A stretch of DNA of 64,000 nucleotides from an uncultured Candidatus Saccharibacteria bacterium (GTDB lineage Bacteria > Patescibacteriota > Minisyncoccia > Phycocordibacterales > DATDWN01), in contig CAYRRP010000002.1 in the NCBI GenBank assembly GCA_964426735.1, positions 6,582 to 70,581 on the forward strand, given 5' to 3'. The stretch's first letter is position 1, and every line of letters begins with the position of its first letter. A model generated the notes under the pieces. That model worked only from the letters and a program-made list of their open reading frames with translations. It was not told the origin of the DNA and did no database searches. Of this stretch, positions 6,583 through 28,529 are shown piece by piece. The position numbers and the translations under genes are program-made.

Positions 6583-8409
6583 CTAGACTCCAAGGATTAC
6601 TGGAATCACAATTGGTTTCTTTGCGGTCTTTTGGTAGAGGTAGCGGCCGACATTGTCCGCAACATTTGCTTTGACGTAGTCAAAGTTGATTGGGTTCATA
6701 CCTTTGGTTGTATCCTCAACTGTTTTTTTGATAATCTGGCGTGTCTGGTTTAAGAGATCTTGCGATTCTCGCAAATACACAAATCCTCGAGAAATAATAT
6801 CGGGAGATTTTTTGAGTTTACCTGTTTTTGCATTCACGCTTGCAACAATCATGAAGATACCATCTTGAGCGAGTGTTTTTCGATCTCGAATCACGAGCTC
6901 TTGTACATCACCAATAGAGAATCCATCCACCATCACGACATTGTCAGGAGCAGATTCTTTGAGACGAACAAATTTAGTTCCACCATCTTGGATTTCAAGG
7001 ATTGCACCATTGTCAGGAACAATAACATTCTCGGGAGGCATACCGATAATTGATTTTGCAAGATCTTCATGTACACGAAGCATGTAGTGACTCCCGTGCA
7101 TTGGCATAAAGAACTTCGCTTTTATTTTTTTATGTAACCATTCGAGCTCTCCTCGGTTTCCGTGTCCAGTTGAGTGGATATATACATCAGATGATCGATA
7201 GTGGATGATTTTTGCACCTTGTCGAGCAAGATTATCTTTAAGTTTCTGTACAGCTTTTTCGTTACCCGGAATAATAGAAGAAGAGAGAAGGACAGTATCC
7301 CGAGGAGTTACTTTAAAGTATTTATGAGTCTTGTTTGACATACGCATCAGTGCCGCAAACTCATCTCCTTGTGCACCTGTTGCGAGCACTACAATACGAT
7401 CAGGAGGGTAGTTTTCCATATCATCTGAGGTGATGATTGTGTCTTTTTTTACTTTCAACATATCGATTGTACGAACAATATCGATATTGTTTTTCATACT
7501 TCTTCCTTCAACAACAACTTTCTTTCCATACCGCTCAGCGATTTCAATGATTTTCATCACGCGTTCGAGCTGTGATGCAAACGTACCGATAATGAGACGA
7601 CTTTTTGTGTTTTTAATAATCTCTTCCAAGTTTTGATGTACTAGACGTTCTGGTGTAGAAAAACCTTGGTTATCAACATTTGTTGAGTCCATCATGAGGA
7701 AGAGTACTTTTTCTTTTTCAAAACGAGAAAATTCTTTTTCTTCTGCTTCGGTAGGAACACCATCAACATGATCAAGTTTGATATCGCCAGGTGTGACGAG
7801 TGCACCATATGGTGTATCGATAATAATACCCATTGAGTCTGGAATAGTGTGAGTCACAGCAAAGAAACGCACTTTAAGTTTTCCGAGAAGAATCGCATCT
7901 TCTTTTTCCACGACTCGAATATCGAGCGCTGGGAGATGAGGGAACTCTTCTTGGCGTTTTTTAACCATAATAGAGGTCAATGCACGAGTGTAGAGTGGTG
8001 GGTTACCGATTCGATCCATGATGTATGGAATACCACCAATATGATCGAGGTGTCCGTGAGTGATAATCACTCCACGAATCTTATCTTTTCGATCCTCAAG
8101 GTATTTTGTGTTAGGAAGAATGTAGTCTACACCTGGTGTATCATCATCTTTAAACTGAAAACCCATATCGATAACTATAATATCGTCTTTGTACTCGATA
8201 AGGGTCATGTTTTTTCCAATCTCTTCTACTCCACCAAGTGGAATAATACGGATTGAATCTCCGGCAGGAGGGATCACATCGTCTTGTTTTTTAGTAAGAC
8301 GTACGTGAGGTGTATGTGGACGACCAAAACTTCTTCGTGGAGAACGTATTGCGCGATGTGTTTCGCGAGGAGTATGTGGTGTTTCGTTATGTGTATCTGA
8401 CTGGTTCAT
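6583..8409 (-). CDS. rnj: ribonuclease J (metallo-beta-lactamase/beta-CASP RNase)
   Basis: 608 aa. HGHLDHIGG zinc motif and overall RNase J organisation, plus an about 60-aa basic N-terminal extension. Confidence 0.85.
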   Translation of the reverse strand: MNQSDTHNETPHTPRETHRAIRSPRRSFGRPHTPHVRLTKKQDDVIPPAGDSIRIIPLGGVEEIGKNMTLIEYKDDIIVIDMGFQFKDDDTPGVDYILPNTKYLEDRKDKIRGVIITHGHLDHIGGIPYIMDRIGNPPLYTRALTSIMVKKRQEEFPHLPALDIRVVEKEDAILLGKLKVRFFAVTHTIPDSMGIIIDTPYGALVTPGDIKLDHVDGVPTEAEEKEFSRFEKEKVLFLMMDSTNVDNQGFSTPERLVHQNLEEIIKNTKSRLIIGTFASQLERVMKIIEIAERYGKKVVVEGRSMKNNIDIVRTIDMLKVKKDTIITSDDMENYPPDRIVVLATGAQGDEFAALMRMSNKTHKYFKVTPRDTVLLSSSIIPGNEKAVQKLKDNLARQGAKIIHYRSSDVYIHSTGHGNRGELEWLHKKIKAKFFMPMHGSHYMLRVHEDLAKSIIGMPPENVIVPDNGAILEIQDGGTKFVRLKESAPDNVVMVDGFSIGDVQELVIRDRKTLAQDGIFMIVASVNAKTGKLKKSPDIISRGFVYLRESQDLLNQTRQIIKKTVEDTTKGMNPINFDYVKANVADNVGRYLYQKTAKKPIVIPVILGV

Positions 8410-8429
8410 ATGTGTGTTGTTACGTTGGG

Positions 8430-10172
8430 TTAATGTTTAATAAAGAATTTCCATACATCGTTTGTATTGATATACCACTCGTGTACATTGAGGAATCGTT
8501 CTCCAGAAATGGTGAGTTGACCAAGTGTAATGTTTTTAACTCGTGTCGGTGTGATATATATAAAGTAAGGTGCATACAAGAAGACGGCAGGAGTATCATT
8601 TTTAATTTCTGTTTCAAATGAAGAAAGATACTTTTTCTTGATGGTTTCATCGGTTGTTTTTCGGTAATCTTCGAGGAGTTTGTCGGTTTTTGGGTTTGCG
8701 TATAATGCAATGTTGAGTCCGGGATCACTTCGTTGTGATGAGTGCCAAAATGGATACACATCGAGATCTCTTCCAAGGACTTCTCCGAAGAGAAGAGAAT
8801 CATATTTACGAGGGCGAATGATATTCTGATTTAGATCACCGACTTCAAAAATTTTTACCTCTACTCGTGCACCAAGTTGTTGCCAACGAGTCTGTATATT
8901 TTGCGCAAGCGCTTTGAGTTCTGGTGCATCGGAAGTAGAAATAGAGAAAGAAAGTATTTCAGTGTCTTTGCCGGTCTTTTTTTCGTATACTCCCTGATCA
9001 TTAAATGCCCAGCCTGCCTTCTCGAGGATTGCACGAGCGTCACTTAAGCGCTCTTCAGGTGTTGTCTCGGTACGGTCGGTTGTGTTGGTATGAAGTGGGC
9101 CGTTGAGTGCTTGCCCGTATCCGACAAGAACTTCTTGAATGATTTGATTTTTATCAATCACACGATCAAGTGCAAGGCGTACTTCCTTGTTTACCAATAC
9201 GGGATTCTCGTTTTGGTTGAAGAATACGCCAAAGACGCGAGGAAGAGGTTGGGTAATCGTACGTGCATTGCTTGTGCTTAGAAGTGCAACATTTTGTGGG
9301 GATATACTATTGATACTTTCTACATCTCCATTTTCAAATCCATCAAGCAAATTTTTTTCATTTGTATAAAATTTTAATACAAGAGTGTCGATGTATGGTC
9401 TACCAAGTGAATATTTTTTGAATGCATGAAGAGTGTATGTAGTTGGGAGACCAGATGCATTTGTTGCAAATGAGTCGACTGAATATGGCCCACTTCCTAC
9501 TGGTTTGGTGTTGAATGTGCTAAATGGGAAACTTTCAGTATCTACATTTTTCCAAATATGCTTTGGTAAAATACCGAGTGTGGTATTTTGAATAAAAGGT
9601 GAGTATGCTTGCTTGAGTGTAAATCTCACTGTGTGTTCGTCAATCTTTTCAACCTTTACTCCATCCCAGTTACTTCGGCGAGGACTTTTTAAAAATGCAT
9701 CTTGTGCTTTTTGGACAGTAAATTCGACATCGTCAGCAGTGACAGGTGTGCCGTCGTGAAATACAGCAGTCTTTTTTAATGTAAATGTATAGATTAATCC
9801 ATCTTCTGAAATAGAATATTCCTGAGCAAGGTCTGGATGTAGACCGCCGTCAGATGTAGCTTTCATGAGTCCAGAGTATACGAGAGATGTGAGGTCTCGG
9901 TCTGCGTCAGAAATCGCAAGAATAGGGTTTATAAATCGAGGTGAACCTACAATACCTTCAGTAATACTTCCACCATAGTCAGGTACTTCTACAAGAAAAG
10001 ATTTGTTGAGTGTGTAAAGTAAAATAAGTCCAGAAATAATACAGATGATACTGATACATGCAAAAAGTATCTTTTCTGTAATAGAAAATGATGAAATAAG
10101 AGATCGTATAGTAGTATAATGAGACACTATCCACCGCTTGTGCGCTTGAGTGTCAGGTAGGTTATTTTCCAC
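8430..10172 (-). CDS. ABC transporter substrate-binding protein, family 5 (oligopeptide/nickel type), N-terminally membrane anchored
   Basis: 580 aa with an N-terminal TM helix and an SBP_bac_5-like body. Confidence 0.6.
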   Translation of the reverse strand: MENNLPDTQAHKRWIVSHYTTIRSLISSFSITEKILFACISIICIISGLILLYTLNKSFLVEVPDYGGSITEGIVGSPRFINPILAISDADRDLTSLVYSGLMKATSDGGLHPDLAQEYSISEDGLIYTFTLKKTAVFHDGTPVTADDVEFTVQKAQDAFLKSPRRSNWDGVKVEKIDEHTVRFTLKQAYSPFIQNTTLGILPKHIWKNVDTESFPFSTFNTKPVGSGPYSVDSFATNASGLPTTYTLHAFKKYSLGRPYIDTLVLKFYTNEKNLLDGFENGDVESINSISPQNVALLSTSNARTITQPLPRVFGVFFNQNENPVLVNKEVRLALDRVIDKNQIIQEVLVGYGQALNGPLHTNTTDRTETTPEERLSDARAILEKAGWAFNDQGVYEKKTGKDTEILSFSISTSDAPELKALAQNIQTRWQQLGARVEVKIFEVGDLNQNIIRPRKYDSLLFGEVLGRDLDVYPFWHSSQRSDPGLNIALYANPKTDKLLEDYRKTTDETIKKKYLSSFETEIKNDTPAVFLYAPYFIYITPTRVKNITLGQLTISGERFLNVHEWYINTNDVWKFFIKH

Positions 10173-15786: not shown

Positions 15787-15873
15787 GGAGGATTCGTATA
15801 GCGGTCTAGTGCGCTCGCTTGGAAAGCGGGTAGGGAAGAAATTCCCTCAGGAGTTCGAATCTCCTATCCTCCG
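15787..15873 (+). tRNA. tRNA-Ser (anticodon GGA), class II with long variable arm
   Basis: Acceptor GGAGGAT/ATCCTCC, anticodon loop TTGGAAA, variable arm AGGGAA-GAAA-TTCCCT, T-loop TTCGAAT. No encoded CCA. Confidence 0.8.
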
Positions 15874-15891
15874 CTAAAATTCGAAGTGCTG

Positions 15892-15925
15892 GCATAAAAA
15901 TGAGGGAGTTGTTGAAACTCCCTCA
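15892..15925 (-). terminator. terminator for the minus-strand gene 15956-16276 (gagggag-N9-ctccctc, T-run on minus strand)
   Basis: Hairpin read directly. Overlaps the first copy of the 26-bp direct repeat. Confidence 0.5.
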
Positions 15926-15955
15926 CGGTCTTCTGTAACATATCCAAGGTAAGAT

Positions 15956-16276
15956 CTAGTTGAGTTTTGGGTCGAAAAACCCTATAAGAGACAGTCCTTC
16001 AGTGGACCCTTTCTCTGAAAGATGTGCGAGCACTCTGATTTTTTCAGTTTCAGCTTCGACATCAGTCTCGAAGGTCTGAATAAACTTTTTTTGTTCTCCG
16101 CAGTGTTCGGGTTGTGGCGATGCTCCAAGAAAATATTTGAAATTAGATCCGTTCTCACGAACGTGGATACCAATCGCAAAATTTCCTCTCTTTAAAACTT
16201 CTCTACAAACCTTACATCCCTGAACGATACCCTCCGGATGCTCTACGACCAACACTTCACATTCATTATTTTTCAT
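15956..16276 (-). CDS. hypothetical protein
   Basis: 106 aa with several Cys (CKVCREV..., EHCGEQ). No recognised family. Confidence 0.4.
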   Translation of the reverse strand: MKNNECEVLVVEHPEGIVQGCKVCREVLKRGNFAIGIHVRENGSNFKYFLGASPQPEHCGEQKKFIQTFETDVEAETEKIRVLAHLSEKGSTEGLSLIGFFDPKLN

Positions 16277-16406
16277 AACGCTTTCCTTTTGGTTTGAAAT
16301 GAACTACTTCACTGAATTGAGTATAGCTGGGACAAAAGCATAAGTGAAGTTTTATATCAAATAAATAATATTTGTATCTTTTTGTTATATATGATATTTT
16401 TTTATT

Positions 16407-17051
16407 ATGATCAAAATAAACGATGTAGTTCAGTATATTTTATATAAAGACGAAGAAGCTCTCACCGCTCTGGCAAAGGGTTATATGAATTTATCTAAAT
16501 ATGCTAAACAAATTCAGGGGGAAGTTAGGGAAAAATCAAAAAAAGAAGTGGGTATTCCGGGGATTGTAGTTTCGTTATCTCGTCTAGCCCAAAAAACCAA
16601 TTCTAAGCATCCACTGATCCAAGATGTTCAAATAAAAAATATTACAACAAAAACTCCTCTTTCAGAGATTGTGTACAGTAAGACCACTGAATCAATCTCA
16701 AAACTTTCCAAAATATACGACAAAGCTAAAACTGGTGCTGATGATTTTTTCACAATAACACTCTCTACAAATGAAATTACAGTTATCTGTAGTGATAGAA
16801 TAAAAGCAGAAATTGAGAGAACACTAAAAGAAAAGCCAGTAATGACTGTAAAAAATCTTGCTTCTATTGGTCTGTCTATCGATCCAAAATACTATCCAAT
16901 GCCAAATATAACCTATTCCTTAATTAGAAGAATCGCACAAAAGAGAATACCCTTGGCAGAAACTATTACTACCCGCACAGAAATTATTTTTGTGTTTGAA
17001 CAAAAATATTTAGCTGAGATGGTTGATTTGTTCATTGTTAAAGAAAACTAG
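16407..17051 (+). CDS. hypothetical protein
   Basis: 214-aa ORF with no recognised motif. Confidence 0.4.
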   Translation: MIKINDVVQYILYKDEEALTALAKGYMNLSKYAKQIQGEVREKSKKEVGIPGIVVSLSRLAQKTNSKHPLIQDVQIKNITTKTPLSEIVYSKTTESISKLSKIYDKAKTGADDFFTITLSTNEITVICSDRIKAEIERTLKEKPVMTVKNLASIGLSIDPKYYPMPNITYSLIRRIAQKRIPLAETITTRTEIIFVFEQKYLAEMVDLFIVKEN

Positions 17052-17214
17052 CCGTCCATCAAAGAACCAGAAAAACCAAAGTTCGAAGTGTTGGCATAAA
17101 AATGGTAGAAAGGGAATTTCTGACCCAAATGAACTTGAAAGGTACATAATAAATATTTACAAAACACTACTCACGCGTGGTATAAAAGGCACTTATGTTT
17201 ATGTTGTTGATTAA
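17023..17214 (+). pseudogene. C-terminal remnant of a DUF2075-like (Schlafen/RecD-like ATPase family) gene
   Basis: The 63-aa ORF ends ...TLLTRGIKGTYVYVVD, which resembles the conserved C-terminal signature of DUF2075 proteins. No upstream body exists, and the second copy of the 26-bp direct repeat lies inside it. Confidence 0.35.
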
Positions 17215-17313
17215 AATTTAAGAAATTGTTTAAACCAAGTTGTAAATAAAACCTCGATCTCAATTCAAAAAGAAATTACTCCAGGAATAATAAAATCTCC
17301 ATATGTTGGTGAA

Positions 17314-17694
17314 ATGGTTAGTGTTCCATTGGTTGGGTCTGCGCCTTGTGGGGAACCACTTTTGGGAGAAAGTAATATTGAGGAAATGATACAAGTCGAA
17401 AAAAACAAAATTAAACCCGGGACCAAATATTTTATTGTTAGAGCTAGTGGAGATTCCATGAATAAAGCGGGAATAGATGATGGTGGTCTTGTTCTCTGTC
17501 GGTATGCTGAAAAAGGGGAAACTGGTGATAGAGTCGTTGCATTACTTGGTGGTGAAAATGTAACGATAAAATATTATGATAAGAAGGATGGTCGTAGAAT
17601 TTTGTTGCCAAAAAGTACCAACCCCGATCATCAGCCGATTGTCCCAGAAGAAGGAGATACTGTTCAAGGTGTAGTTCAGGAAATTTTGAAATAA
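17314..17694 (+). CDS. umuD: S24 family peptidase, UmuD-like (no DNA-binding domain)
   Basis: 126 aa with VRASGDSMNKAGIDDGGLVLC (catalytic Ser in GDSM) and a downstream Lys. There is an in-frame stop 72 nt upstream, so no LexA-type HTH. Confidence 0.7.
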   Translation: MVSVPLVGSAPCGEPLLGESNIEEMIQVEKNKIKPGTKYFIVRASGDSMNKAGIDDGGLVLCRYAEKGETGDRVVALLGGENVTIKYYDKKDGRRILLPKSTNPDHQPIVPEEGDTVQGVVQEILK

Positions 17695-17852
17695 ATTTTA
17701 ACACAGCCATGTATGATTCGAGACTTTTGTTGGATATTATAAATAGTGGCTTACCCTGTCTTCCTGGCTAAATCTCCCTGTCCCCGCAAAATCGTGATAG
17801 TACGAGATAAGTCTAAAAAAGGCCCCAATTGAGTGCTTTTTAAACTTGATAA

Positions 17853-18986
17853 ATGTATGATGAGTTTATGGCAAAATGCATCTACTGCTTAAAAGATGAG
17901 ATAGGGACAACTTTTCTAAGCAGGGAACATGTTATTCCTCAGTCTTTTGGCACTTTTACCCCGTTAAATCCAAATATAAAAGGTGATGTTGTCTGCGATA
18001 GTTGTAATACAAAAATCCTAAGTCCTCTGGAAACTAATTTCATTGAAGATTCAATGGAGGGTTTTTTCGCACAACGATTAAATCTGAACAATAGAAACAG
18101 TATCACAATGAGAAATGGAAACTTTAAGATTGATACAGATAGCGGTTTTGGTCATGATTTCTTTAATCAAATGGTTTTTCCACTTAAACCAGAAAACGAT
18201 AAGCTCGTTCCTTATCCAAAAACTCAAATAAAATTTCGAGGGCTCGGAGGTCAATCTTGTCGAGTGTTCTTTCCAGAAGCACTAAAACAAATCAAAAAAG
18301 ACTCAAAAGAGTTTTTGAAACTTTCTGCTGACATGAAGAAACTAAGTCAAAAAGATCTCTGTATTTTCGCTGAGACGCATGAGGATATGAATGAGGTCGT
18401 CGTACTTTTAAAGGAGTACGGTGTGATTTACAACGAAAAAGAGCGTTATCACAAACCTTTTGAAGAAGGTGTGAAGTACGAATTGTCAGAAGACTATTCT
18501 TGTACAGTAAATCATAATATTGGTCGTGTCCTAGCAAAGATTGCACTGAATTATTTTGTGTATTGTTGTATACAAGACAGTCAAAAATCACTTCTGCTAT
18601 TGCCAGGTTTTGATCCAATAAGAAACTATATATTTAAAGGGGATGGAAAAATGCGAGACTTCATTGTTTCTGTTAATGAGAAGCCTATTACTTATTATGA
18701 AAATGAAAATGATGAGAGGATCATTTCGCATATCATTAATTTTATTGAAGAAAATGGAATGGTTGTTGCAAGAATGACATTCTTTGGTTGTCCTGCAATC
18801 TACAAAATTATTTTAGGTGAGATGCCAAACGGAATACCTGTCAAAAACTTTGGGTGTGGGCATTTATTCGATCCTTTTTCAAAAAGAATTATCAATATGG
18901 CAAATAAACCCACGCCAGAGGAGCTAACTTCTGAACAAGTGAGGGTAACTTTCGGTATACAAAAAAGATATCGTTTTGGCACATAA
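17853..18986 (+). CDS. HNH-motif nuclease domain protein with large unknown C-terminal region
   Basis: N-terminal KCIYCL...SREHVIPQSFG...DVVCDSCN gives the CxxC...(E)H...N...CxxC HNH signature. The remaining 280 aa or so are unrecognised. Confidence 0.55.
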   Translation: MYDEFMAKCIYCLKDEIGTTFLSREHVIPQSFGTFTPLNPNIKGDVVCDSCNTKILSPLETNFIEDSMEGFFAQRLNLNNRNSITMRNGNFKIDTDSGFGHDFFNQMVFPLKPENDKLVPYPKTQIKFRGLGGQSCRVFFPEALKQIKKDSKEFLKLSADMKKLSQKDLCIFAETHEDMNEVVVLLKEYGVIYNEKERYHKPFEEGVKYELSEDYSCTVNHNIGRVLAKIALNYFVYCCIQDSQKSLLLLPGFDPIRNYIFKGDGKMRDFIVSVNEKPITYYENENDERIISHIINFIEENGMVVARMTFFGCPAIYKIILGEMPNGIPVKNFGCGHLFDPFSKRIINMANKPTPEELTSEQVRVTFGIQKRYRFGT

Positions 18987-19055
18987 TGATCGGGTTTTTG
19001 AAGGTACTCTAAAAAAGTAGATTGCAAATTCGCCTGTAAACCTTATGATGAAAGA

Positions 19056-19964
19056 GTGAAAAAGCGTCACCACACCGTGCCGAGATGTTACCTAGAAAAC
19101 TTCACTGACCATGATGGTTTTGTTTGGGTTTTGGATACAAAAGACAATATATTCCGTATTAAGCCTGAAAATATTCTCCTTGAAAATCACTTCTACACTA
19201 TCACACTCAAGGACGGTGAAAAGAGCTTCGTAGTTGAAGATACTCTGGCCAATATTGAAGGAGCGTACATTGCAATCTTTCAGAATAAAATTGAAAAAGA
19301 GCTTCCTCTTACTGATGAAGAAAGAGCAAGAGTTGCTGTTTTTATAGCTGCGCTTTATATAAGAACTTCACCGTATAGAGAGGGTCTTCGCAGTGCGTTT
19401 GGAACGCTCAGAAGGGGTATGGAAGATTGGAAAAAGCAGTTTGAGACAATGAGTAAAGAATCGAAAAGGGCTATGGCTGCTATCCAATCTTCCGGCAAAG
19501 ATGAATTAATCAGTATTGATGATTTGGATAAGTACTTAGAGAATTTTAATGAACATCATTCTGTAAACGTGATTGAACAGTTGCCTGAGATTGCCCAAAT
19601 CATATTTGATATGAAGTGGGCTATCTGGAGAGATATTAATAGTAATTTTGTTACAAGCGATGATCCTGTTGTGCTTTTGCGGCCAGAGTCAATTAAAAAA
19701 TATGGAGCAAATGCAATTGGTAGCAAACCAGGGCTTCTTTATAAAGATACTGAGTTAACACTTCCTCTATCGAAAGATAGATTGCTTTTAGCAGGATGGA
19801 TACTGAACAAAAATTCTTATATAGATGTTCCTGATGATATTGTCCGGAGGATAAACCACAGAACGATAACAGGATCTTCAGATAGAATTATTACTAAATC
19901 TCAAAAGGATGCTGAAACAATAAGAGATAAATATACCGAAACTGTAAATAAGACAGAAAAATGA
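19056..19964 (+). CDS. DUF4238-like protein
   Basis: The N-terminus MKKRHHTVPRCYLENFTD matches, from memory, the HHxVPxxYLxxF start of the DUF4238 family. Confidence 0.45.
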   Translation: MKKRHHTVPRCYLENFTDHDGFVWVLDTKDNIFRIKPENILLENHFYTITLKDGEKSFVVEDTLANIEGAYIAIFQNKIEKELPLTDEERARVAVFIAALYIRTSPYREGLRSAFGTLRRGMEDWKKQFETMSKESKRAMAAIQSSGKDELISIDDLDKYLENFNEHHSVNVIEQLPEIAQIIFDMKWAIWRDINSNFVTSDDPVVLLRPESIKKYGANAIGSKPGLLYKDTELTLPLSKDRLLLAGWILNKNSYIDVPDDIVRRINHRTITGSSDRIITKSQKDAETIRDKYTETVNKTEK

Positions 19965-20632
19965 ATGATGAATTTCTGCAAAAAAGAATAGCTGAAACAA
20001 AACACGAAATCTTTCCAATTGACAGGCTTTTATCATTGGAAAGCGTCTACCTCATATTCCAAGAAGAATACGTGAAGGTTGAAGATAAAAATCTTTTATT
20101 CAAAGATTCTAAATATCAGCGCTTGCGAGAAGGTTACTTTTCGATGTTTGTTGCCGTTTCTCTTCAAGATAACTCGGTTTCGAGGAAAAGGCACTATCTT
20201 ATTTTCCCCTCAGATCCTAGTAACGATGTCTATATTAGCTACAGATTGAATGAGGAGAAAGAGTCGATACCGAAGTTAATAGCCTACGAATTTGATATTA
20301 AAGAATATACGAACTGGTCGCTAAACTTTGAAGAATTCACCAAGAAAAGTATAATTCCAAAAATTGGTATCTATAATATCGCTATACCCATTTATAGAAA
20401 AATGGACGGACAGGATCTGCAGTTGTTGGTCGATTATTTGAAAGCAAACAAGCTCATAAGAAGAATATGGATACTCGGACTCCCATCAGATACCGTGAAA
20501 AATTATGATATTTCTGATGTAACTATTGTTGATAAAGACGGTATTATTTATCATAAGACGATAAACCTAAGTGAATGGATAGATAAAACCGAAGTGCCTA
20601 TAATTTTTCAAGATATCATTAGGTTTAAATAA
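19961..20632 (+). CDS. hypothetical protein, translationally coupled to preceding gene
   Basis: ATGA start/stop overlap. 223 aa with no recognised motif. Confidence 0.45.
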   Translation: MNDEFLQKRIAETKHEIFPIDRLLSLESVYLIFQEEYVKVEDKNLLFKDSKYQRLREGYFSMFVAVSLQDNSVSRKRHYLIFPSDPSNDVYISYRLNEEKESIPKLIAYEFDIKEYTNWSLNFEEFTKKSIIPKIGIYNIAIPIYRKMDGQDLQLLVDYLKANKLIRRIWILGLPSDTVKNYDISDVTIVDKDGIIYHKTINLSEWIDKTEVPIIFQDIIRFK

Positions 20633-20747
20633 ATTATTCAGACTGTAAAAAATAAGGATAAGGCTTTTTTGGATCGGTGGAGAAGTTGTAGTATAGAAAA
20701 ATAATACGCCAAAGAGTATAGTTCTCCACAGGTGATATCTTGTTTCG

Positions 20748-20771
20748 GTGAACGAATGTTCACTGTATAAT
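20748..20771 (+). promoter_or_regulatory. Cheo-box-like LexA operator candidate GTGAAC-gaat-GTTCAC overlapping a TGTATAAT -10 element
   Basis: GAAC-N4-GTTC at 20750-20761 and TATAAT at 20766-20771. Lies at the predicted start of the Y-family polymerase gene. Confidence 0.45.
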
Positions 20772-22010
20772 GTAGGTGTGTCAAAGAACAGAGTAATTTT
20801 TCATATGGATGGGGATGCTTTTTTTGTTGGATGTGAGGTGGCAAAAAATCCAAAACTAAAAGGTCTTCCTGTTGTCACCGGGCAGGAGCGCGGGATTGTT
20901 TCTGCGCTTTCATACGAAGCCAAAGCACTTGGCATAATCCGTGGTATGCCTATTTTTCGCGTAAAGAAAAATTTCCCAAACGTTTTAGTGTTGCCAGGTG
21001 ACTATGCGTCCTATGTCATGTATTCAGAAAAAATGTTTGATATTGTGCGCCGGTATGCAGACGATGTGGAGGAATACAGTATAGACGAATGTTTTGCAGA
21101 CCTGACAGGGCTCGACAGACCGCTCCATATGACATACACACAAATAGCCGAGAGAATTAAAAAAGAAGTAGTGGCAGAACTCGGACTTTCGGTTTCTGTC
21201 GGACTCGCTCCGACAAAAGTTTTAGCAAAAGTTGCATCGAAATGGAAAAAACCAGATGGACTTACGGTGATTGACTTAGGACATATAACACAGTTTCTGA
21301 CAGAGACACCGATAGGTAAAATCTGGGGTATAGGGCCACGCACCGCAGAGCGTTTACAGAGATTGGGGATAAAAACAGCGGGAGACTTTGCCGGCAAAGA
21401 TATGACGTGGGTCAAAAATAATTTATCTAAACCATATATAGAAATATGGATGGAGTTAAATGGGGTGTGCGTACACCACGTCGACCCAAACCCAAAAACA
21501 ACATATTCCTCGGTGCAGAAAACGAGAACTTTTTATCCGACAACAAACGACAAGGTTTTTCTCCTTTCGCAGATATCCAAACATACAGAGGAGGCTTGTC
21601 GTAAAGCGAGACACTACAACCTCGTTCCCAAAAAATTTTCTTTCTTTTTGAAAAGTCATGATTTTACATATTATTCACACACAGTAGTGTTAGAGGTACC
21701 TACACATGCACCAGAAACGTTGGTCAGTATCGCACGGTCTCACCTCGACAAAGCTTGGCGTCCAGGTGTGCAGTTTCGGACCACAGGCGTGACTCTTTCA
21801 GAACTCGAGCCCGAGGGTGTAAAACAAGGTGACTTGTTTGGTGCGATTGAAAAAGCAACAAAGTTTGAGATCATACACAAACAAATAGATAGTCTAGAAA
21901 AAAAGTTTGGTAAAGGTGTAGTGCATCTCGGCAGTACAGACAAAGCAATAAAAAACAGAACCCTCGGTACCGACTCGGACGATCTTTCTCGCGACTTGCT
22001 GTTTTTGTAA
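20748..22010 (+). CDS. umuC: Y-family DNA polymerase (UmuC/DinB-like); start codon uncertain (GTG 20748, GTG 20778 or later)
   Basis: VIFHMDGDAFFVGCEV is the h-h-D-x-D-x-F-F-a-x-x-E palm motif. A little finger domain follows. Confidence 0.8.
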   Translation: MNECSLYNVGVSKNRVIFHMDGDAFFVGCEVAKNPKLKGLPVVTGQERGIVSALSYEAKALGIIRGMPIFRVKKNFPNVLVLPGDYASYVMYSEKMFDIVRRYADDVEEYSIDECFADLTGLDRPLHMTYTQIAERIKKEVVAELGLSVSVGLAPTKVLAKVASKWKKPDGLTVIDLGHITQFLTETPIGKIWGIGPRTAERLQRLGIKTAGDFAGKDMTWVKNNLSKPYIEIWMELNGVCVHHVDPNPKTTYSSVQKTRTFYPTTNDKVFLLSQISKHTEEACRKARHYNLVPKKFSFFLKSHDFTYYSHTVVLEVPTHAPETLVSIARSHLDKAWRPGVQFRTTGVTLSELEPEGVKQGDLFGAIEKATKFEIIHKQIDSLEKKFGKGVVHLGSTDKAIKNRTLGTDSDDLSRDLLFL

Positions 22011-22044
22011 GAGAGTATCTGCACCAGGAAACTGGTCATCTGGC
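21987..22044. repeat. 58-bp direct repeat, copy 1 (last 8 codons of umuC-like gene plus 34 bp downstream)
   Basis: tctcgcgacttgctgtttttgtaagagagtatctgcaccaggaaactggtcatctggc. Copy 2 is at 23058-23115, with a single mismatch. Confidence 0.85.
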
Positions 22045-22093
22045 ACTGATTATTAGTGTCGCTGACTGTTGCTATTTTTAAATAAGGTTACCA

Positions 22094-22122
22094 TTGACAT
22101 AACGCTATCCGTATGCTAAGAT
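22094..22122 (+). promoter_or_regulatory. consensus promoter TTGACA-17-TAAGAT upstream of GC-rich gene, with SD aaggag 8 nt before ATG 22198
   Basis: Sequence read directly. Confidence 0.55.
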
Positions 22123-22197
22123 AGCGCAGGATTCATGAGCTATTTCTGGCTCAAAAAATGCATATTCCCAAACCCAAACGAAAGAAGGAGACAAGCT

Positions 22198-22932
22198 ATG
22201 GCAACCGATGGTCCTGATCCCGCACCCTGTAAGCCTGATATTCTCAAGAAAGGCAGGGGTGTCTGTGTCCTCGACGGTAGTTCCAACGCTGTAGAGCGTT
22301 GGGTACAGTCTGTCGCTAAGAAAGCTAACGCTCAAGTCGACTGGCATTACAGTGGTGGACGAGCGAACGTTCTGCATCTCGGTGACGACACAAGTCGTCA
22401 GCGCGTTCTGAACGCAATCAGTGAGCTCAGAGGTGAACTCAAAGGTCGGATTCTCAGCGTCGACGGTCCTGCCCTCTATAGTAACGATATCGAAGATCCC
22501 GAAGCAAGCGGCGCAGTCGTTCGTGAAGTCGACGGCCAACTGGTGCTCGATGATCCGATCGCCGTCGCGGTGATCAGGGTGGTGGAGAAACACAACTGCC
22601 GTAACACACTGGAACTGAACGCCGATCGCGTCAAGCACTTCAAGCGTCGGCTGACGGAGCGTGGCATGACTCCAGATCAAGCGGTGATCGTTCTCCTGAA
22701 CGTCGACGACGTTCACGGCGGTCCGCTCGCGAACGCTCTGATGCCCGGACACAACTGGCAGGAAATCCGTGACAAGGGAGAAGTCCCTTTCGCGCGAGGA
22801 CTCGCCATGCGAGACGGCATTCAGAAAGCGCTCGGTGCTTTCGACAAGGACGCCGCGACGAAGTTGCAGAGCATCAGCGACGTAGCTGTCGTGGTAGTTG
22901 ACCACGGTGTCGCCGAAGTATTCGCGGCCTAA
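22198..22932 (+). CDS. hypothetical protein encoded by a GC-rich (foreign-composition) insert
   Basis: 244 aa. Strong third-position G/C bias in this frame, and a good SD and promoter. The antisense ORF 22105-23043 is judged an artefact of GC richness. Confidence 0.55.
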   Translation: MATDGPDPAPCKPDILKKGRGVCVLDGSSNAVERWVQSVAKKANAQVDWHYSGGRANVLHLGDDTSRQRVLNAISELRGELKGRILSVDGPALYSNDIEDPEASGAVVREVDGQLVLDDPIAVAVIRVVEKHNCRNTLELNADRVKHFKRRLTERGMTPDQAVIVLLNVDDVHGGPLANALMPGHNWQEIRDKGEVPFARGLAMRDGIQKALGAFDKDAATKLQSISDVAVVVVDHGVAEVFAA

Positions 22933-23057
22933 CCGCAAAACTTCGCAATGGCACAATGGGCGCACGACCTTCGGGTACGTGCGCCTTTTCTTATACCACA
23001 TCCAATGAACGAAGCCACAGAGTTTAGAGTAACCATCAGACACGGAGAGGAAGCGTC

Positions 23058-23115
23058 TCTCGCGACTTACTGTTTTTGTAAGAGAGTATCTGCACCAGGA
23101 AACTGGTCATCTGGC
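23058..23115. repeat. 58-bp direct repeat, copy 2
   Basis: Identical to 21987-22044 except one base (g/a). Confidence 0.85.
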
Positions 23116-26815: not shown

Positions 26816-27394
26816 TTACGTGCGGCGCCGGAGTGCTGCGATGCCGATGAGCCCTGCGCCCATGAGGACGAAGGACATCGGTTCGGGTACCTGGGATGTC
26901 ATGTTACCTGACCATGCAACGGTGGTGTCGGGGTTGTATCCACCAGCGTACTGAGCTGATATTGCCCCGGTGACAACTGTCGGGTCGAAACCATTCCCTG
27001 TAACTGTGCCGGTGAACGCGGCCGACAGAAAGTCAACCCCGCCTGGTAGACTCGTGAGTACCCAGACATTCGCCCCTTGCCAGGAGGTCACATCGACGGT
27101 GAATCCGTTGAAAGTGAGAAAGCCTGGCATCGGGATGTTGCCGAGGATGTTGGTTGCGGTTCCGCCGCTCCCGAGGGAGCTGCTGAAATCGCCGGTAGCC
27201 GGGGTTACGACAGTGAACGACGGGGTACCGATGAAGGTACCACTGTTCATGTTATTGATTTTGATGTTCGCCACCGGTGAGCCGAAGTTCACCGTGCCGT
27301 AGATTGGTGCGGCGGTTGCCGCCGGTGAGAAGAGGCCGAAGCCAATGACTGCGATCATGGCCAGGAGGCCATTTTTTAAAAAGTTTTTTACCAC
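26816..27394 (-). CDS. PEP-CTERM sorting-domain secreted protein
   Basis: Signal peptide. C-terminus VPEPMSFVLMGAGLIGIAALRRRT (PEP motif + TM + basic tail). GC-rich. Confidence 0.7.
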   Translation of the reverse strand: MVKNFLKNGLLAMIAVIGFGLFSPAATAAPIYGTVNFGSPVANIKINNMNSGTFIGTPSFTVVTPATGDFSSSLGSGGTATNILGNIPMPGFLTFNGFTVDVTSWQGANVWVLTSLPGGVDFLSAAFTGTVTGNGFDPTVVTGAISAQYAGGYNPDTTVAWSGNMTSQVPEPMSFVLMGAGLIGIAALRRRT

Positions 27395-27527
27395 TTTTTA
27401 CTCCGATTTTTTTTTCAATGTACATTGTCACCGACCTGCTTCGAAAACAGTTCGATAGACATTGCCGTCAAAGACACTATCATGTTTTATTTAATACGTC
27501 AAGTATTTTTTAAACTTTTTTTGTATG

Positions 27528-27566
27528 AAAAAAATAATCCCCGGTCACGTAAGTGACCGGGGATTG
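27528..27566 (-). terminator. terminator atccccggtcac-gtaa-gtgaccggggat + T-run (minus strand)
   Basis: 12-bp stem. Confidence 0.65.
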
Positions 27567-27592
27567 GTTGGGTTTGAAAGAACTGGTTTTTG

Positions 27593-28378
27593 TTACGCGC
27601 CGTTGTGATGACGGCGCCGGAAGAGCGCAATGCCGACAAGGCCTGCGCCCATGAGGACGAGGGTTATCGGTTCAGGGACTCCAGTTTGTTGGTCGGGTGG
27701 ACCTTGCATTACTACAAACGCCTTGTTAGCCGCGTTATTGCCGGACGCCATGTTGCTGGTTCCGTCGAAGAACACGAGTTCCCAAATGGTGCTGGGGACG
27801 AATGCTACCACATCACCGACTCCGTTGGTCGGATCGAGGATGCTGTAGAGCACGTTCGGTACTGACGGGTCACGCCAGTACATATTAAGGAGTCCTTCGA
27901 GGAGGGAAATTCTGACTACCAGTTCAGCGGAGTTTGACCCACTGTTTTGTTGAAACCTAAACCCAGCTGCGCCACCAGCATTGGTACCAAAGTATTGGCT
28001 GTTGGCCGGCGTCCAGTTTGGACTGGTCGAACTGCCCGTGAACCCTCCAGTTCCGTAGGCGTAGCTGGCTAAGTTCATGATTTGTGTACTGTACGGAGAG
28101 TTCCCGTCCAGATACGGCAGACCGTCTTGGTTGGGTGTAAACCCGGGTTGCCAAGATCCTACGGTATTACCTGACCCGATGAGGCCGAAGTTCCCGGTCA
28201 TCAGAATGGTCATGCTTGTGTAGGTGCACGCGTTTGCAATTGCACAGAGCTGAGGTAGAGCTTGAGCTCCAACCAAAAGCGGACTGTTGTTGGTGTACGG
28301 CGCCGCCTGCAGGGAGCAGGTGAGTGCCGTAGTGATAAGAAGAATGGCAAATGCCATCTTCTGGTTTTTGATAAACAT
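27593..28378 (-). CDS. PEP-CTERM sorting-domain secreted protein (paralog); start taken at MFIKNQKMAFAILL
   Basis: C-terminus GVPEPITLVLMGAGLVGIALFRRRHHNGA. GC-rich. Confidence 0.7.
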   Translation of the reverse strand: MFIKNQKMAFAILLITTALTCSLQAAPYTNNSPLLVGAQALPQLCAIANACTYTSMTILMTGNFGLIGSGNTVGSWQPGFTPNQDGLPYLDGNSPYSTQIMNLASYAYGTGGFTGSSTSPNWTPANSQYFGTNAGGAAGFRFQQNSGSNSAELVVRISLLEGLLNMYWRDPSVPNVLYSILDPTNGVGDVVAFVPSTIWELVFFDGTSNMASGNNAANKAFVVMQGPPDQQTGVPEPITLVLMGAGLVGIALFRRRHHNGA

Positions 28379-28529
28379 ACTACATCTCCAACGTCGTTGA
28401 ATTGAGGCGTTCATCGCCTCGTTTTGTCTGCCGGAAACCTTAGCACACCTCTTTGTGTATGTAAATAGACTTATTGACAAAGTTATATATAAATAGTAGT
28501 GTTGTTTTCAATTAATAATAGAGGATTAT

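Follow-up and report, generated by a model that had tools for sequence, protein, structure and literature searches.

Background

In experiments DUF4238 has proved to be an anti-phage system on its own: the single gene protects against T7 (PMC9122126). No mechanism for DUF4238 has been described in the literature. Nhi and Nhi-like defence proteins carry DUF2075 as their helicase domain. PrrC is a latent nuclease embedded in the EcoprrI type I restriction-modification (RM) locus, and both HNH and PD-(D/E)xK-type nuclease families also occur in homing endonucleases. Here we analyse a stretch of Patescibacteria chromosome of 64 kb (the window) in which a DUF4238 gene, two predicted nuclease genes and the remains of a DUF2075 helicase gene lie close together. 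The five open reading frames (ORFs) called by an earlier, sequence-only reading are all present where it placed them, and the motifs it quoted are real.

From a tRNA-Ser gene (at 15.8 kb) up to about 23.1 kb the chromosome probably forms a variable island of defence or "immigration-control" genes, whose gene-sized cassettes were joined piecemeal. The island is a patchwork of anti-phage-type nuclease genes; neither a single three-gene system nor an insertion into umuDC is supported.

Layout and borders of the probable island

Read from left to right, the island would open with a 1.2-kb insert between att-like repeats. Next would come what is left of the 3' end of a DUF2075 (Nhi-type) helicase gene, together with its LexA-like S24 domain gene, which is still conserved; an HNH_5 nuclease that stands alone and has a novel C-terminal domain; an operon in which a DUF4238 defence protein is translationally coupled to a small PD-(D/E)xK nuclease that we call G4; and a Y-family polymerase with its own promoter, under the control of a LexA box. 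The G+C content of the island is 0.34-0.36, against about 0.40 for the window. Its left end has the following features (related loci and contigs are given by their L numbers throughout).

15787..15874, + strand: tRNA-Ser(GGA), found with ARAGORN, the left anchor of the variable region
15876..15902, + strand: 27-nt direct repeat, copy 1, att-like, directly 3' of the tRNA-Ser gene and 93% identical to copy 2
15903..17077, no strand: 1.2-kb segment between the 27-nt repeats, with two family-less ORFs
15956-16276, - strand: ORF of 106 aa in this segment
16407-17051, + strand: ORF of 214 aa in this segment
17078..17104, + strand: 27-nt direct repeat, copy 2; from 17101 onwards the relative L067 is homologous

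The 23-nt core of the 27-nt repeat has two matches in the 64-kb window where none is expected. Neither the 106-aa nor the 214-aa ORF matches a family in Pfam, NCBIfam, PHROG or PADLOC at a significant E-value. The right-hand edge of the variable region is marked by a second repeat pair.

21987-22044 and 23058-23115, no strand: 58-nt direct repeats, 98% identical

The 1013-nt segment between these repeats (21987..23115) has a G+C content of 54%, and the Logan contig L001 stops within copy 1. In other genomes recombinases adjoin the homologous cassettes, and homologues of the HNH, DUF4238 and G4 genes sit among RM systems, retrons, serine or tyrosine recombinases and prophage genes. The sequence-only reading is supported in part: the three genes are nuclease genes of the defence type, and their surroundings are variable and mobile.

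The S24 gene and the helicase remnant

17089..17214, + strand: what remains of the C-terminal part of a DUF2075 / SLFN-g3-type helicase gene, cut off at its 5' end (Pfam SLFN-g3_helicase, E 1.1e-7)
17215..17694, + strand: stand-alone S24 peptidase, LexA C-terminal-domain-like, ORF from ATG 17314 (Pfam, NCBIfam)

The helicase remnant matches profile positions 309-354 of the 354 in SLFN-g3_helicase, and L067 retains the remaining part of the gene, frameshifted. The stop codon of the remnant (17212-17214) is also the in-frame stop ahead of the S24 gene; it lies 99 nt upstream of the ATG, not 72 nt as had been stated. This TAA is GAA in L067, where helicase and S24 domain share one reading frame. 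The ORF at 17314-17694 is indeed an S24 peptidase (Peptidase_S24, E 2.7e-20) with the GDSM serine already pointed out and a lysine in VTIK; a cleavage-site-like CG and the Ser/Lys dyad can be read from the sequence. Its dN/dS against L067 is 0.046, which is strong purifying selection, and the 33-codon linker ahead of the ATG (17215-17313) also evolves like coding sequence (dN/dS 0.13). Downstream of the S24 gene L067, the one relative recovered, has different genes than the window, and the polymerase is absent from the 1.7 kb between its S24 gene and the contig end. The label "umuD-like" is not established, as the NCBIfam LexA model outscores the UmuD model (73 bits vs 54 bits, both under the curated cut-offs). 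The supposed umuD is a LexA-C-terminal-like S24 domain, and the gene to which it is linked is a DUF2075 (Nhi-type) helicase gene that has decayed.

The polymerase and its predicted promoter

20748..20771, + strand: predicted SOS-regulated promoter of the polymerase, with a 16-nt perfect palindrome, GTGAACGAATGTTCAC, followed by TATAAT at 20766-20771
20805..22010, + strand: Y-family DNA polymerase, 401 aa (Pfam IMS, IMS_HHH, IMS_C)

All three Pfam domains agree with the earlier assignment of 20748-22010 to a Y-family polymerase. The protein most likely starts at ATG 20805 (401 aa) and not at 20748, because in the longer ORF the IMS domain does not start until residue 20, and the full-length cluster mates are all 401-437 aa. 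The designation "umuC-like" is not established either: Pol IV / DinB models outscore UmuC on NCBIfam (PRK01810 at 253 bits vs UmuC at 179 bits, both under the curated cut-offs). The palindrome GTGAACGAATGTTCAC, in the spacer between G4 and the polymerase, is a Cheo-type LexA box (GAAC-N4-GTTC), and exact sites of this form occur just twice in the 64 kb. No LexA-type box lies upstream of the S24, HNH or DUF4238 genes, which speaks against the proposal that the cassette is co-regulated with the SOS response. Promoter and terminator scans of the locus gave background levels, and a strong terminator between the genes was not detected.

The predicted nuclease genes

17771..18990, + strand: HNH_5 nuclease with a leader of about 80 nt, an independently mobile unit; ORF 17853-18986
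19021..20637, + strand: DUF4238 and G4 two-gene block, kept as one unit in L024/L025 (blastn)
19056..19964, + strand: DUF4238 protein, GTG start, N-terminus MKKRHHTVP (Pfam DUF4238)
19961..20632, + strand: G4, 223 aa, a predicted PD-(D/E)xK-type nuclease of a rare, unclassified family

The N-terminal HNH signature that had been read in the first of these genes is sound, since HNH_5 scores above the Pfam gathering score (31.4 bits vs 27.5) and the CIYC, EHVIP and CDSCN residues are invariant across 27 homologues. We found no structural match for the conserved C-terminal domain of about 300 aa. The protein has no significant match in PADLOC (PtuB is matched by 4 of the 27 members, at best with E 0.019), and the nearest profile is PHROG 35254, of unknown function. 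Relatives of 47-87% identity occur without DUF4238 and G4, beside a serine recombinase and a type III-like or type I RM system, and another is carried as a moron within the tail module of a prophage. We infer nuclease activity and an anti-phage role for the proteins of this locus, as well as any physical interaction between them; the HNH protein would act alone, as an innate-immunity nuclease against incoming phage or plasmid DNA.

The identity of the second gene, which had been proposed from its opening residues, is confirmed over the whole length by Pfam DUF4238 (E 3e-39) and by the PADLOC DUF4238 model (DUF4238-Pers, E 4e-14 over 280 of 309 positions). The MKKRHHTVP N-terminus is common to the DUF4238 homologues in the alignment.

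G4 matches no Pfam, NCBIfam, PHROGs or PADLOC family and has no detectable sequence relationship to PDB entries. The family is rare, with 42 representatives among 1.84 billion proteins. The protein had been described as lacking any recognisable motif, but E57...D89...D112-x-K114 is invariant in 28 homologues. The predicted fold is restriction-endonuclease-like, with an alpha-beta-beta-beta-alpha-beta core, and the model places the E...D...(D/E)xK residues on helix 1 and on strands 2 and 3. G4 would be a Mg-dependent DNA endonuclease.

Modularity of the cassettes

The coupling of the second and third genes by an ATGA overlap was correctly noted. In L024 the overlap is 8 nt, and blastn aligns this locus at 72% identity across 1628 nt covering both genes. 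The two overlapping genes have been kept together, as a block of 1.6 kb, in two neighbourhoods that are unrelated to each other. Within the G4 clade of at least 72% identity, DUF4238 is adjacent in 7 of 8 loci, with three subfamilies and both gene orders represented. DUF4238 precedes G4 in the window, L024 and L032, and follows it in L003, L010, L028 and L031. Every DUF4238 ORF in 661 kb of loci (those retrieved with DUF4238 excluded) directly adjoins G4. DUF4238 also occurs without G4, in L026 and L027.

A co-directional gene ends at most 15 nt upstream of G4 in about 19 of about 35 distinct loci. Its immediate 5' neighbours include DUF4238, HNH_5-CTD relatives, NERD-like proteins (preceded at a greater distance by DUF5677), a 169-aa ORF of a retron VII-A2 locus, trypsin-like proteases, HsdM, an EcoRI-type methylase and a HEPN-like protein. 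On the 3' side, L051 has a GmrSD_N-HNH gene immediately after G4. G4 directly follows HNH_5-CTD relatives in two distant loci, L042 (13-nt overlap) and L054 (3-nt gap), and these are just 26-29% identical to the HNH protein of the window. Since G4 is recurrently coupled to DUF4238 and, in these two loci, to HNH_5-CTD relatives, the three families are not a random assortment. Tight spacing itself is weak evidence for functional coupling because Patescibacteria genomes are compact.

Nucleotide homology to other genomes ends precisely where genes do, which divides the locus into independent units. The blastn blocks cover 17771-18990 (HNH, L019), 19021-20637 (the pair, L024), 19057-19943 (DUF4238 alone, L026/L027) and about 19957-20632 (G4 alone, six loci). 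The full trio of HNH, DUF4238 and G4 was seen only in L001, L002 and L065, contigs that belong to the same lineage as the window. Our verdict is that DUF4238-G4 is a two-gene version of a known defence system, with a previously unclassified nuclease as partner. Within the pair, DUF4238 would supply the activity that protects E. coli from T7 in the single-gene system and G4 would add or execute cleavage; the pair would work independently of the HNH protein, likewise in innate immunity, as nucleases that attack phage or plasmid DNA entering the cell. As a portable last gene, G4 would also join other defence genes at their 3' side. The HNH, DUF4238 and G4 families were not found in IMG/VR viral contigs except for N-terminal HNH matches, so independent phage-derived support is thin.

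Alternative explanations

G4 could instead be a restriction endonuclease that works alone, as a modification-dependent (type IV) enzyme or as the R subunit of a type II RM system with its methylase elsewhere; DUF4238 would then lie beside it only through a shared insertion hotspot. Distant members directly after an EcoRI-type methylase (L052) and between hsdM and hsdS (L015) fit this, as does partnerless G4 in L011, L014, L016 and L030. We think it unlikely, since a methylase adjoins G4 in only 2 of about 35 loci, whereas the adjacency of DUF4238 is highly specific, with no DUF4238 ORF elsewhere in the flanks, and the overlapping pair recurs as a block. It is a little less likely still that the three genes form one integrated system, as had been proposed, in which HNH_5-CTD and DUF4238 are alternative or cooperating sensor-nuclease subunits acting through a shared G4 nuclease. 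The trio is co-directional with short spacers and G4 is coupled to both kinds of partner, but the restriction of the trio to one lineage, the HNH relatives that lack both partners, the distance of those that precede G4, and the end of homology between the HNH and DUF4238 genes (18990 and 19021) all argue for separate units. Nor does hhalign relate the HNH C-terminal domain to DUF4238 (probability 0.2%).

The idea that a cassette split a umuD-umuC translesion operon and thereby came under SOS control we regard as very improbable. It draws on the intact Ser/Lys dyad with a CG cleavage-type site upstream, the same-strand polymerase downstream with its LexA-type box, and the lack of a detected strong terminator between the genes. 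Against it, the S24 gene is contiguous with the helicase remnant in both the window and L067, other genes follow it in L067, and the polymerase is closer to Pol IV than to UmuC, with an operator and -10 element of its own downstream of the cassette; the S24, HNH and DUF4238 genes have no LexA box ahead of them. Slightly more improbable again is that the HNH gene and G4 are selfish mobile genes, homing-endonuclease-like or addictive, with no function in host defence. Cassette limits at gene borders, the prophage moron and the use of both nuclease families by homing endonucleases would suit such genes. Their insertion sites are many unrelated defence loci with no conserved target gene, though, no intron or intein context was seen, and G4 was not found in IMG/VR.

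Comparison with known systems

The window shares with Rst_DUF4238 (PADLOC "DUF4238"; Rousset et al. 2022, P2-prophage hotspot; PMC9122126) the same full-length domain, in surroundings that are mobile and rich in defence genes. The published system has one gene and E. coli as its host, whereas here the host belongs to the Patescibacteria and the gene is ATGA-coupled to a PD-(D/E)xK-type partner in a pair that recurs in L024. In its predicted core and E...D...(D/E)xK pattern G4 resembles the type IV catalytic domains of MspJI and AspBHI, the type IIS enzyme PaqCI, HamA of Hachiman and CdiA-CT toxins, but it has no modification-reading domain, helicase partner or toxin-delivery domain. Like the latent PrrC-type nucleases it can lie between hsdM and hsdS, and it is the last gene after many other defence genes; unlike them it is a PD-(D/E)xK protein and not an anticodon nuclease or ABC-ATPase protein.

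The HNH protein shares the N-terminal CxxC...EH...CxxCN zinc-finger HNH motif of Septu PtuB, Zorya ZorE and McrA (His-Me finger; for the classification of His-Me nucleases see PMC5714182). It differs from these in having no ATPase partner and in its structurally unmatched C-terminal domain. The locus as a whole recalls the umuDC and mucAB operons and lexA-dinB, which likewise combine an S24 autoprotease-type gene with a Y-family polymerase in the same orientation and have a LexA-type operator at the polymerase. Here the two are 3.1 kb apart, the S24 gene goes with the remains of a helicase gene, the polymerase is nearer to Pol IV, and their adjacency is not seen in L067, the single relative recovered.

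The island and its edges

The region between 15.8 and 23.1 kb is a tRNA-adjacent variable island. All five co-directional open reading frames (ORFs) described from the sequence alone are present there, and the features of the region are these:

15787-15874, tRNA-Ser(GGA) gene
17078-17104, second copy of a 27-nt repeat
17089-17214, end of a helicase gene
17314-17694, co-directional ORF, S24 peptidase gene
17853-18986, co-directional ORF, HNH gene
19056-19964, co-directional ORF, DUF4238 gene
19961-20632, co-directional ORF, gene for the 223-aa protein we call G4
20748-22010, co-directional ORF, Y-family polymerase gene
21987-23115, 58-nt direct repeats and the segment they flank

G+C is 0.34-0.36 across 16-21 kb versus about 0.40 elsewhere in the window. 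The first copy of the 27-nt repeat lies directly 3' of the tRNA gene; 0 matches are expected by chance. Between the two copies lies a 1.2-kb insert whose two ORFs, of 106 and 214 aa, belong to no family; 15787-17104 resembles a small integrated element with its attL/attR but no integrase. At the other edge the 58-nt repeats, 98% identical, hold the 3' end of the polymerase gene and flank a 1013-nt segment of 54% G+C, against about 39% for the genome. This segment follows directly after the polymerase stop codon and has long ORFs on both strands, 265 aa (+) and 312 aa (-), neither with a Pfam family; a blastn search against plasmids gave no match to it. A Logan contig ends inside the first 58-nt repeat, which suggests either a strain-variable insertion or an assembly join.

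Beyond 23.2 kb the genes are ordinary chromosomal ones: a TPR protein, NDH-2, PEP-CTERM and surface proteins, and what we take, reading the ORFs by eye, to be an ECF sigma/anti-sigma pair. Two PEP-CTERM-tailed proteins on the minus strand (26816-28480) sit in a patch of 0.46-0.51 G+C and look unusual for Patescibacteria. Logan runs SRR14271366, SRR14271372 and SRR14271373 contain identical contigs, and homologues carry labels such as Saccharibacteria, Paceibacterota, Minisyncoccia and Parcubacteria. The source is an uncultured Patescibacteria (CPR) population.

The S24 gene and its helicase

The S24 gene had been called umuD-like. The S24 domain is certainly there (Peptidase_S24, E 2.7e-20), with its CG site and Ser/Lys dyad, but in NCBIfam the protein scores 73 bits on the LexA model TIGR00498 against 54 bits on the UmuD model NF007621, both under the cut-offs. 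The in-frame stop placed 72 nt before its ATG really lies 99 nt upstream, at 17212-17214. Directly upstream of the gene, a DUF2075 / SLFN-g3 helicase survives as its final ~41 residues, covering Pfam profile positions 309-354 of 354 only. Nhi and Nhi-like anti-phage proteins have DUF2075 as their helicase domain. We reject 17089-17214 as an intact protein of that kind, as it is a C-terminal stump here and the helicase of the one relative is frameshifted.

That relative, on a fetched contig (L067; all L-numbers are handles of fetched contigs or loci with homologues), is the sole S24 relative recovered and is ~90% identical. The rest of the helicase precedes its S24 gene, broken by at least 4 frameshifts. 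It has GAA at the site of the window's TAA stop, so there the S24 domain continues the reading frame of the helicase C-terminus. Homology to the window covers 17101-17669 only, starting at copy 2 of the 27-nt repeat and ending at the S24 stop. No polymerase follows the S24 gene within the 1.7 kb to the contig end, a limited test of whether relatives keep the two genes side by side; what follows is a 218-aa protein and small ORFs. The 218-aa ORF (L067 8510-9166) starts 35 nt after the S24 gene and has a weak C-terminal HNH match (E 4e-4), so that an HNH-type gene comes after S24 in both genomes; the two HNH proteins are unrelated in architecture.

The S24 ORF has a dN/dS of 0.046, which is strong purifying selection, and the stretch of 33 "non-coding" codons ahead of the ATG also shows a coding-like pattern of change (dN/dS 0.13). 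Because of this selection and the context in L067, we believe the S24 domain to be a working protein whose history lies with the helicase gene, and not demonstrably with the polymerase. Across window 17089-17694 and L067 6848-8474 the helicase part is degraded in both genomes and the S24 part conserved. The DUF2075 helicase and the LexA-like S24 domain may form a tight gene pair, or a fusion of a helicase with a self-cleaving peptidase. This could link a defence helicase to the sensing of RecA filaments, and a RecA-filament-triggered, self-cleaving defence switch is a side possibility.

The polymerase and its predicted operator

The polymerase has the IMS, IMS_HHH and IMS_C domains of the Y-family. 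It had been called umuC-like; its best NCBIfam matches are Pol IV models (253-204 bits), ahead of UmuC PRK03609 at 179 bits, all under cut-offs. It most probably starts at ATG 20805, giving 401 aa. Upstream is a perfect 16-nt palindrome, GTGAACGAATGTTCAC (20748-20763), which we predict to be a LexA box of the Cheo (Gram-positive) type. It is abutted by TATAAT at 20766-20771, 34 nt before that ATG. Exact GAAC-N4-GTTC occurs at two sites in 64 kb versus 1.05 expected, CTGT-N8-ACAG has no occurrence in the window, and SOS boxes are not enriched across it, so the site is credible for its position and extended palindrome alone. It is plausible that the polymerase is an SOS gene with its own predicted promoter downstream of the cassette, and the box would imply that this lineage has a LexA regulon using a Cheo-type operator. 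A promoter and terminator scan stayed at shuffled background and gave no transcript-unit evidence.

The HNH gene

The N-terminal HNH signature of the first cassette gene is borne out. It matches HNH_5 at 31.4 bits versus a gathering score of 27.5 (Pfam), and C9, C12, E25, H26, C48, C51 and N52 are invariant in an alignment of 27 homologues. With the catalytic His, the Asn and the zinc-binding Cys pairs of the beta-beta-alpha-metal motif all present, the protein is by motif a predicted HNH_5 / His-Me finger nuclease. A conserved C-terminal region of ~300 aa follows, in which K229, N233, Y234, G336 and H337 are invariant in the same homologues. We rejected homology of this region to DUF4238, an idea that arose because EHVIPQSFG in the HNH protein resembles HHTVPRCYL in DUF4238 (hhalign probability 0.2%, E 0.28). 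PDB sequence searches with profiles of the HNH, DUF4238 and G4 families returned nothing meaningful. An IMG/VR scan returned N-terminal motif matches only for the HNH family, and no G4, no member of the window's DUF4238 subfamily and no close polymerase relative.

Relatives of the HNH protein at 47-87% identity occur with neither DUF4238 nor G4. One (L019) adjoins a convergent serine recombinase and a methylase/ResIII pair, and its blastn match to the window is exactly 17771-18990, the HNH gene plus ~80 nt of leader. Another (L020) adjoins an unknown 339-aa protein, a serine recombinase and a type I restriction-modification (RM) system with an AAA_15 gene. The third (L023) is a moron in a prophage, between endolysin and tape-measure genes.

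DUF4238 and G4

The assignment of the second gene to DUF4238 is confirmed. The protein is a full-length DUF4238 by its match to PF14022 (E 3.1e-39), in which residues 4-283 cover profile positions 1-280 of 281. It also matches PADLOC PDLC03000, DUF4238-Pers, the defence profile derived from the validated protein (E 4.1e-14; profile positions 5-290 of 309). The ATGA overlap joining it to the G4 gene is as had been claimed; the two also overlap in another locus, L024.

The third gene had been said to lack any recognisable motif. It does have one: E57, D89, D112, K114 and E115 are invariant in an alignment of 28 homologues, where they fall in the motifs QRLREGYF, NDVY and FDIKEYT, giving a clear E57...D89...D112-x-K114 pattern. 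In the AlphaFold model (pLDDT 85.9, pTM 0.85) E57 lies in helix 50-71, D89 just before or at the start of strand 90-95, and D112-I-K114 at the end of strand 106-113. In this model the layout matches the canonical PD-(D/E)xK one, with an acidic residue on helix 1, D at a strand start and (D/E)xK on the next strand, and the predicted fold is restriction-endonuclease-like. By sequence profile G4 belongs to no named family in Pfam, NCBIfam, PHROGs or PADLOC and has no match in PDB; hhalign of G4 against DUF4238 gave nothing. Among 1.84 billion cluster representatives, a profile search turned up 42 family members; nearly all are ~220 aa long, with no clear fusion to a further domain. At most 2 of 28 members share any Pfam or PADLOC family, and none of these matches is significant.

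We gathered ~35 distinct G4 loci and analysed their neighbours. At ~19 a co-directional gene ends no more than 15 nt from the G4 start, and which gene this is varies. Serine recombinases, a tyrosine integrase or an IS200-type gene adjoin several loci.

Genes beside G4 at individual loci
Upstream: DUF4238 (window, L024, L032)
Upstream: HNH_5-CTD relatives, that is the HNH_5 domain with the C-terminal domain (L042, with an HTH gene before it; L054)
Upstream: NERD-like 569-aa protein, with DUF5677 before it (L010, L028, L031)
Upstream: 169-aa ORF after the RT gene in a type VII-A2 retron locus (L004)
Upstream: trypsin-like peptidases (L012, L049)
Upstream: HsdM, with hsdS after G4 (L015)
Upstream: EcoRI-type methylase (L052)
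Upstream: HEPN-like protein (L055)
Directly downstream: GmrSD_N-HNH gene (L051)

The retron locus (L004 5678-9251; also L005, L006 and L033) has a type VII-A2 RT (PADLOC, 7.8e-87) in a Patescibacteria contig. Beside the RT are the 169-aa ORF, which is weakly HEPN-like, then G4 and a putative DUF3800 gene recognised by eye from its N-terminal sequence, with a ParB-methylase and a serine recombinase nearby. That G4 so often comes last in line after defence genes of many kinds suggests either a portable effector or a restriction nuclease, type IV-like, that rides other operons.

The pairing with DUF4238 goes beyond shared residence in an island. When 661 kb of fetched loci were scanned with an iterated DUF4238 profile, every DUF4238 ORF directly adjoined G4, except in the loci fetched by DUF4238. 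Eight loci make up the G4 clade with at least 72% identity to the window protein, and in seven of them a DUF4238 gene adjoins G4. These DUF4238 genes fall into three subfamilies, 23-65% identical mutually; some lie upstream of G4, others downstream. At the eighth locus (L030) the sequence just ahead of G4 is the leader found before DUF4238 in L024; comparing L030 88-843 with L024 7007-8672, it looks as though a DUF4238 gene had cleanly entered or left between leader and G4.

DUF4238 also occurs alone: L026 and L027 carry relatives 80-88% identical to the window's, without G4, matching window 19057-19943 at 85% and 78% nucleotide identity (blastn). In both (8001-9903 in each) it is followed by a convergent, 3'-overlapping, family-less 333-aa ORF, common to two different chromosomal neighbourhoods. 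This ORF may be an alternative DUF4238 partner.

How the island was probably assembled

The best-supported reading, and the one we lean towards, is a small defence island assembled from independent cassettes. The first would be a decayed Nhi-type helicase gene with its surviving LexA-like S24 gene, the second a stand-alone HNH_5 nuclease with a novel C-terminal domain, and the third a DUF4238-G4 operon. Nuclease activities, an anti-phage role and protein-protein contact are what we infer for these genes. Within the operon, G4 would be a Mg-dependent DNA endonuclease supplying or reinforcing the killing step. The L024/L025 pair forms one continuous 1.6-kb homology block with window 19021-20637 (72% nucleotide identity) in an unrelated neighbourhood, adjoining a recombinase fragment, and G4 alone (~19957-20632) is matched in six loci by blastn. 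Because homology blocks end at gene borders, the genes also occur separately and the trio is restricted to the window's own lineage, we read the cassette as HNH and DUF4238-G4, gene-sized modules that appear to recombine at gene borders.

The three genes might instead be one true three-component system. They do stand together, but only in contigs of the window's own lineage, and the pair and the single genes are found separately elsewhere, so the proposal of a single system is not supported. The idea of a umuDC operon split by a cassette under SOS control draws on the S24 and polymerase genes lying on one strand around the trio. Against it, the polymerase's own operator and -10 element lie 3' of the cassette, which counts against co-regulation through that operator; no LexA-type box precedes the S24, HNH or DUF4238 genes; and S24 is linked to the helicase remnant. 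Neither the insertion into umuDC nor the SOS co-regulation is upheld.

G4 could also be a solitary restriction enzyme. One distant G4 gene is flanked by the hsdM and hsdS genes of a type I RM locus (L015 102-4153) and another comes directly after an EcoRI-type methylase (L052 130-1989), settings reminiscent of latent nucleases inside RM operons or of a bona fide R subunit. These two are the only G4 loci with a neighbouring methylase, and the window has none between 15.8 and 23 kb, so G4 here is probably not the R subunit of a type II RM system. Purely selfish nuclease genes are a further, unlikely rival.

A bolder reading, which we think rather unlikely, is that G4 proteins make up a new, almost Patescibacteria-specific family of portable PD-(D/E)xK effector nucleases serving as the common last gene of unrelated sensors. 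The sensors that recruit G4 would be those of DUF4238, HNH_5-CTD, retron, trypsin-like protease, NERD-like and methylase loci, and DUF4238 and G4 together would make a true two-component immune system. If this is true, the role of DUF4238 is to sense infection and license a partner nuclease.

Comparison with known systems

DUF4238 is already known, HNH and PD-(D/E)xK are known superfamilies, and defence islands beside tRNA genes are common. What is new is the G4 family, its recurrent specific pairing with DUF4238, the unmatched HNH C-terminal domain and the nucleotide-resolved boundaries of the cassettes. Neither G4 nor the HNH_5 C-terminal domain is represented in Pfam, PADLOC 2.0 or solved structures, so current defence-annotation tools would miss both. 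The boundaries give a nucleotide-level view of gene-sized cassette shuffling in the defence islands of Patescibacteria, a group whose immune repertoire is poorly charted.

In a umuDC-type operon the S24 and polymerase genes are adjacent and co-transcribed, whereas the polymerase here has its own predicted operator and -10 element. It is important to realize that an S24 peptidase and a Y-family polymerase on one strand are not proof of a umuDC operon. Septu (PtuB) and Zorya (ZorE) carry cognate ATPase or partner genes, whereas no ATPase gene adjoins the window's HNH gene. PADLOC gives the window protein no match, the best for any family member being PtuB at E 0.019, so we reject it as one of these or another catalogued HNH defence component. 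The closest comparison is with the single-gene DUF4238 system. The only DUF4238 protein tested, from an E. coli P2 hotspot, protects E. coli against T7 (PMC9122126). DUF4238 is thus a validated anti-phage protein whose mechanism is unclassified in the literature, and a natural nuclease partner would be a concrete handle on how it acts. The DUF4238-G4 operon would be a two-gene variant of that system.
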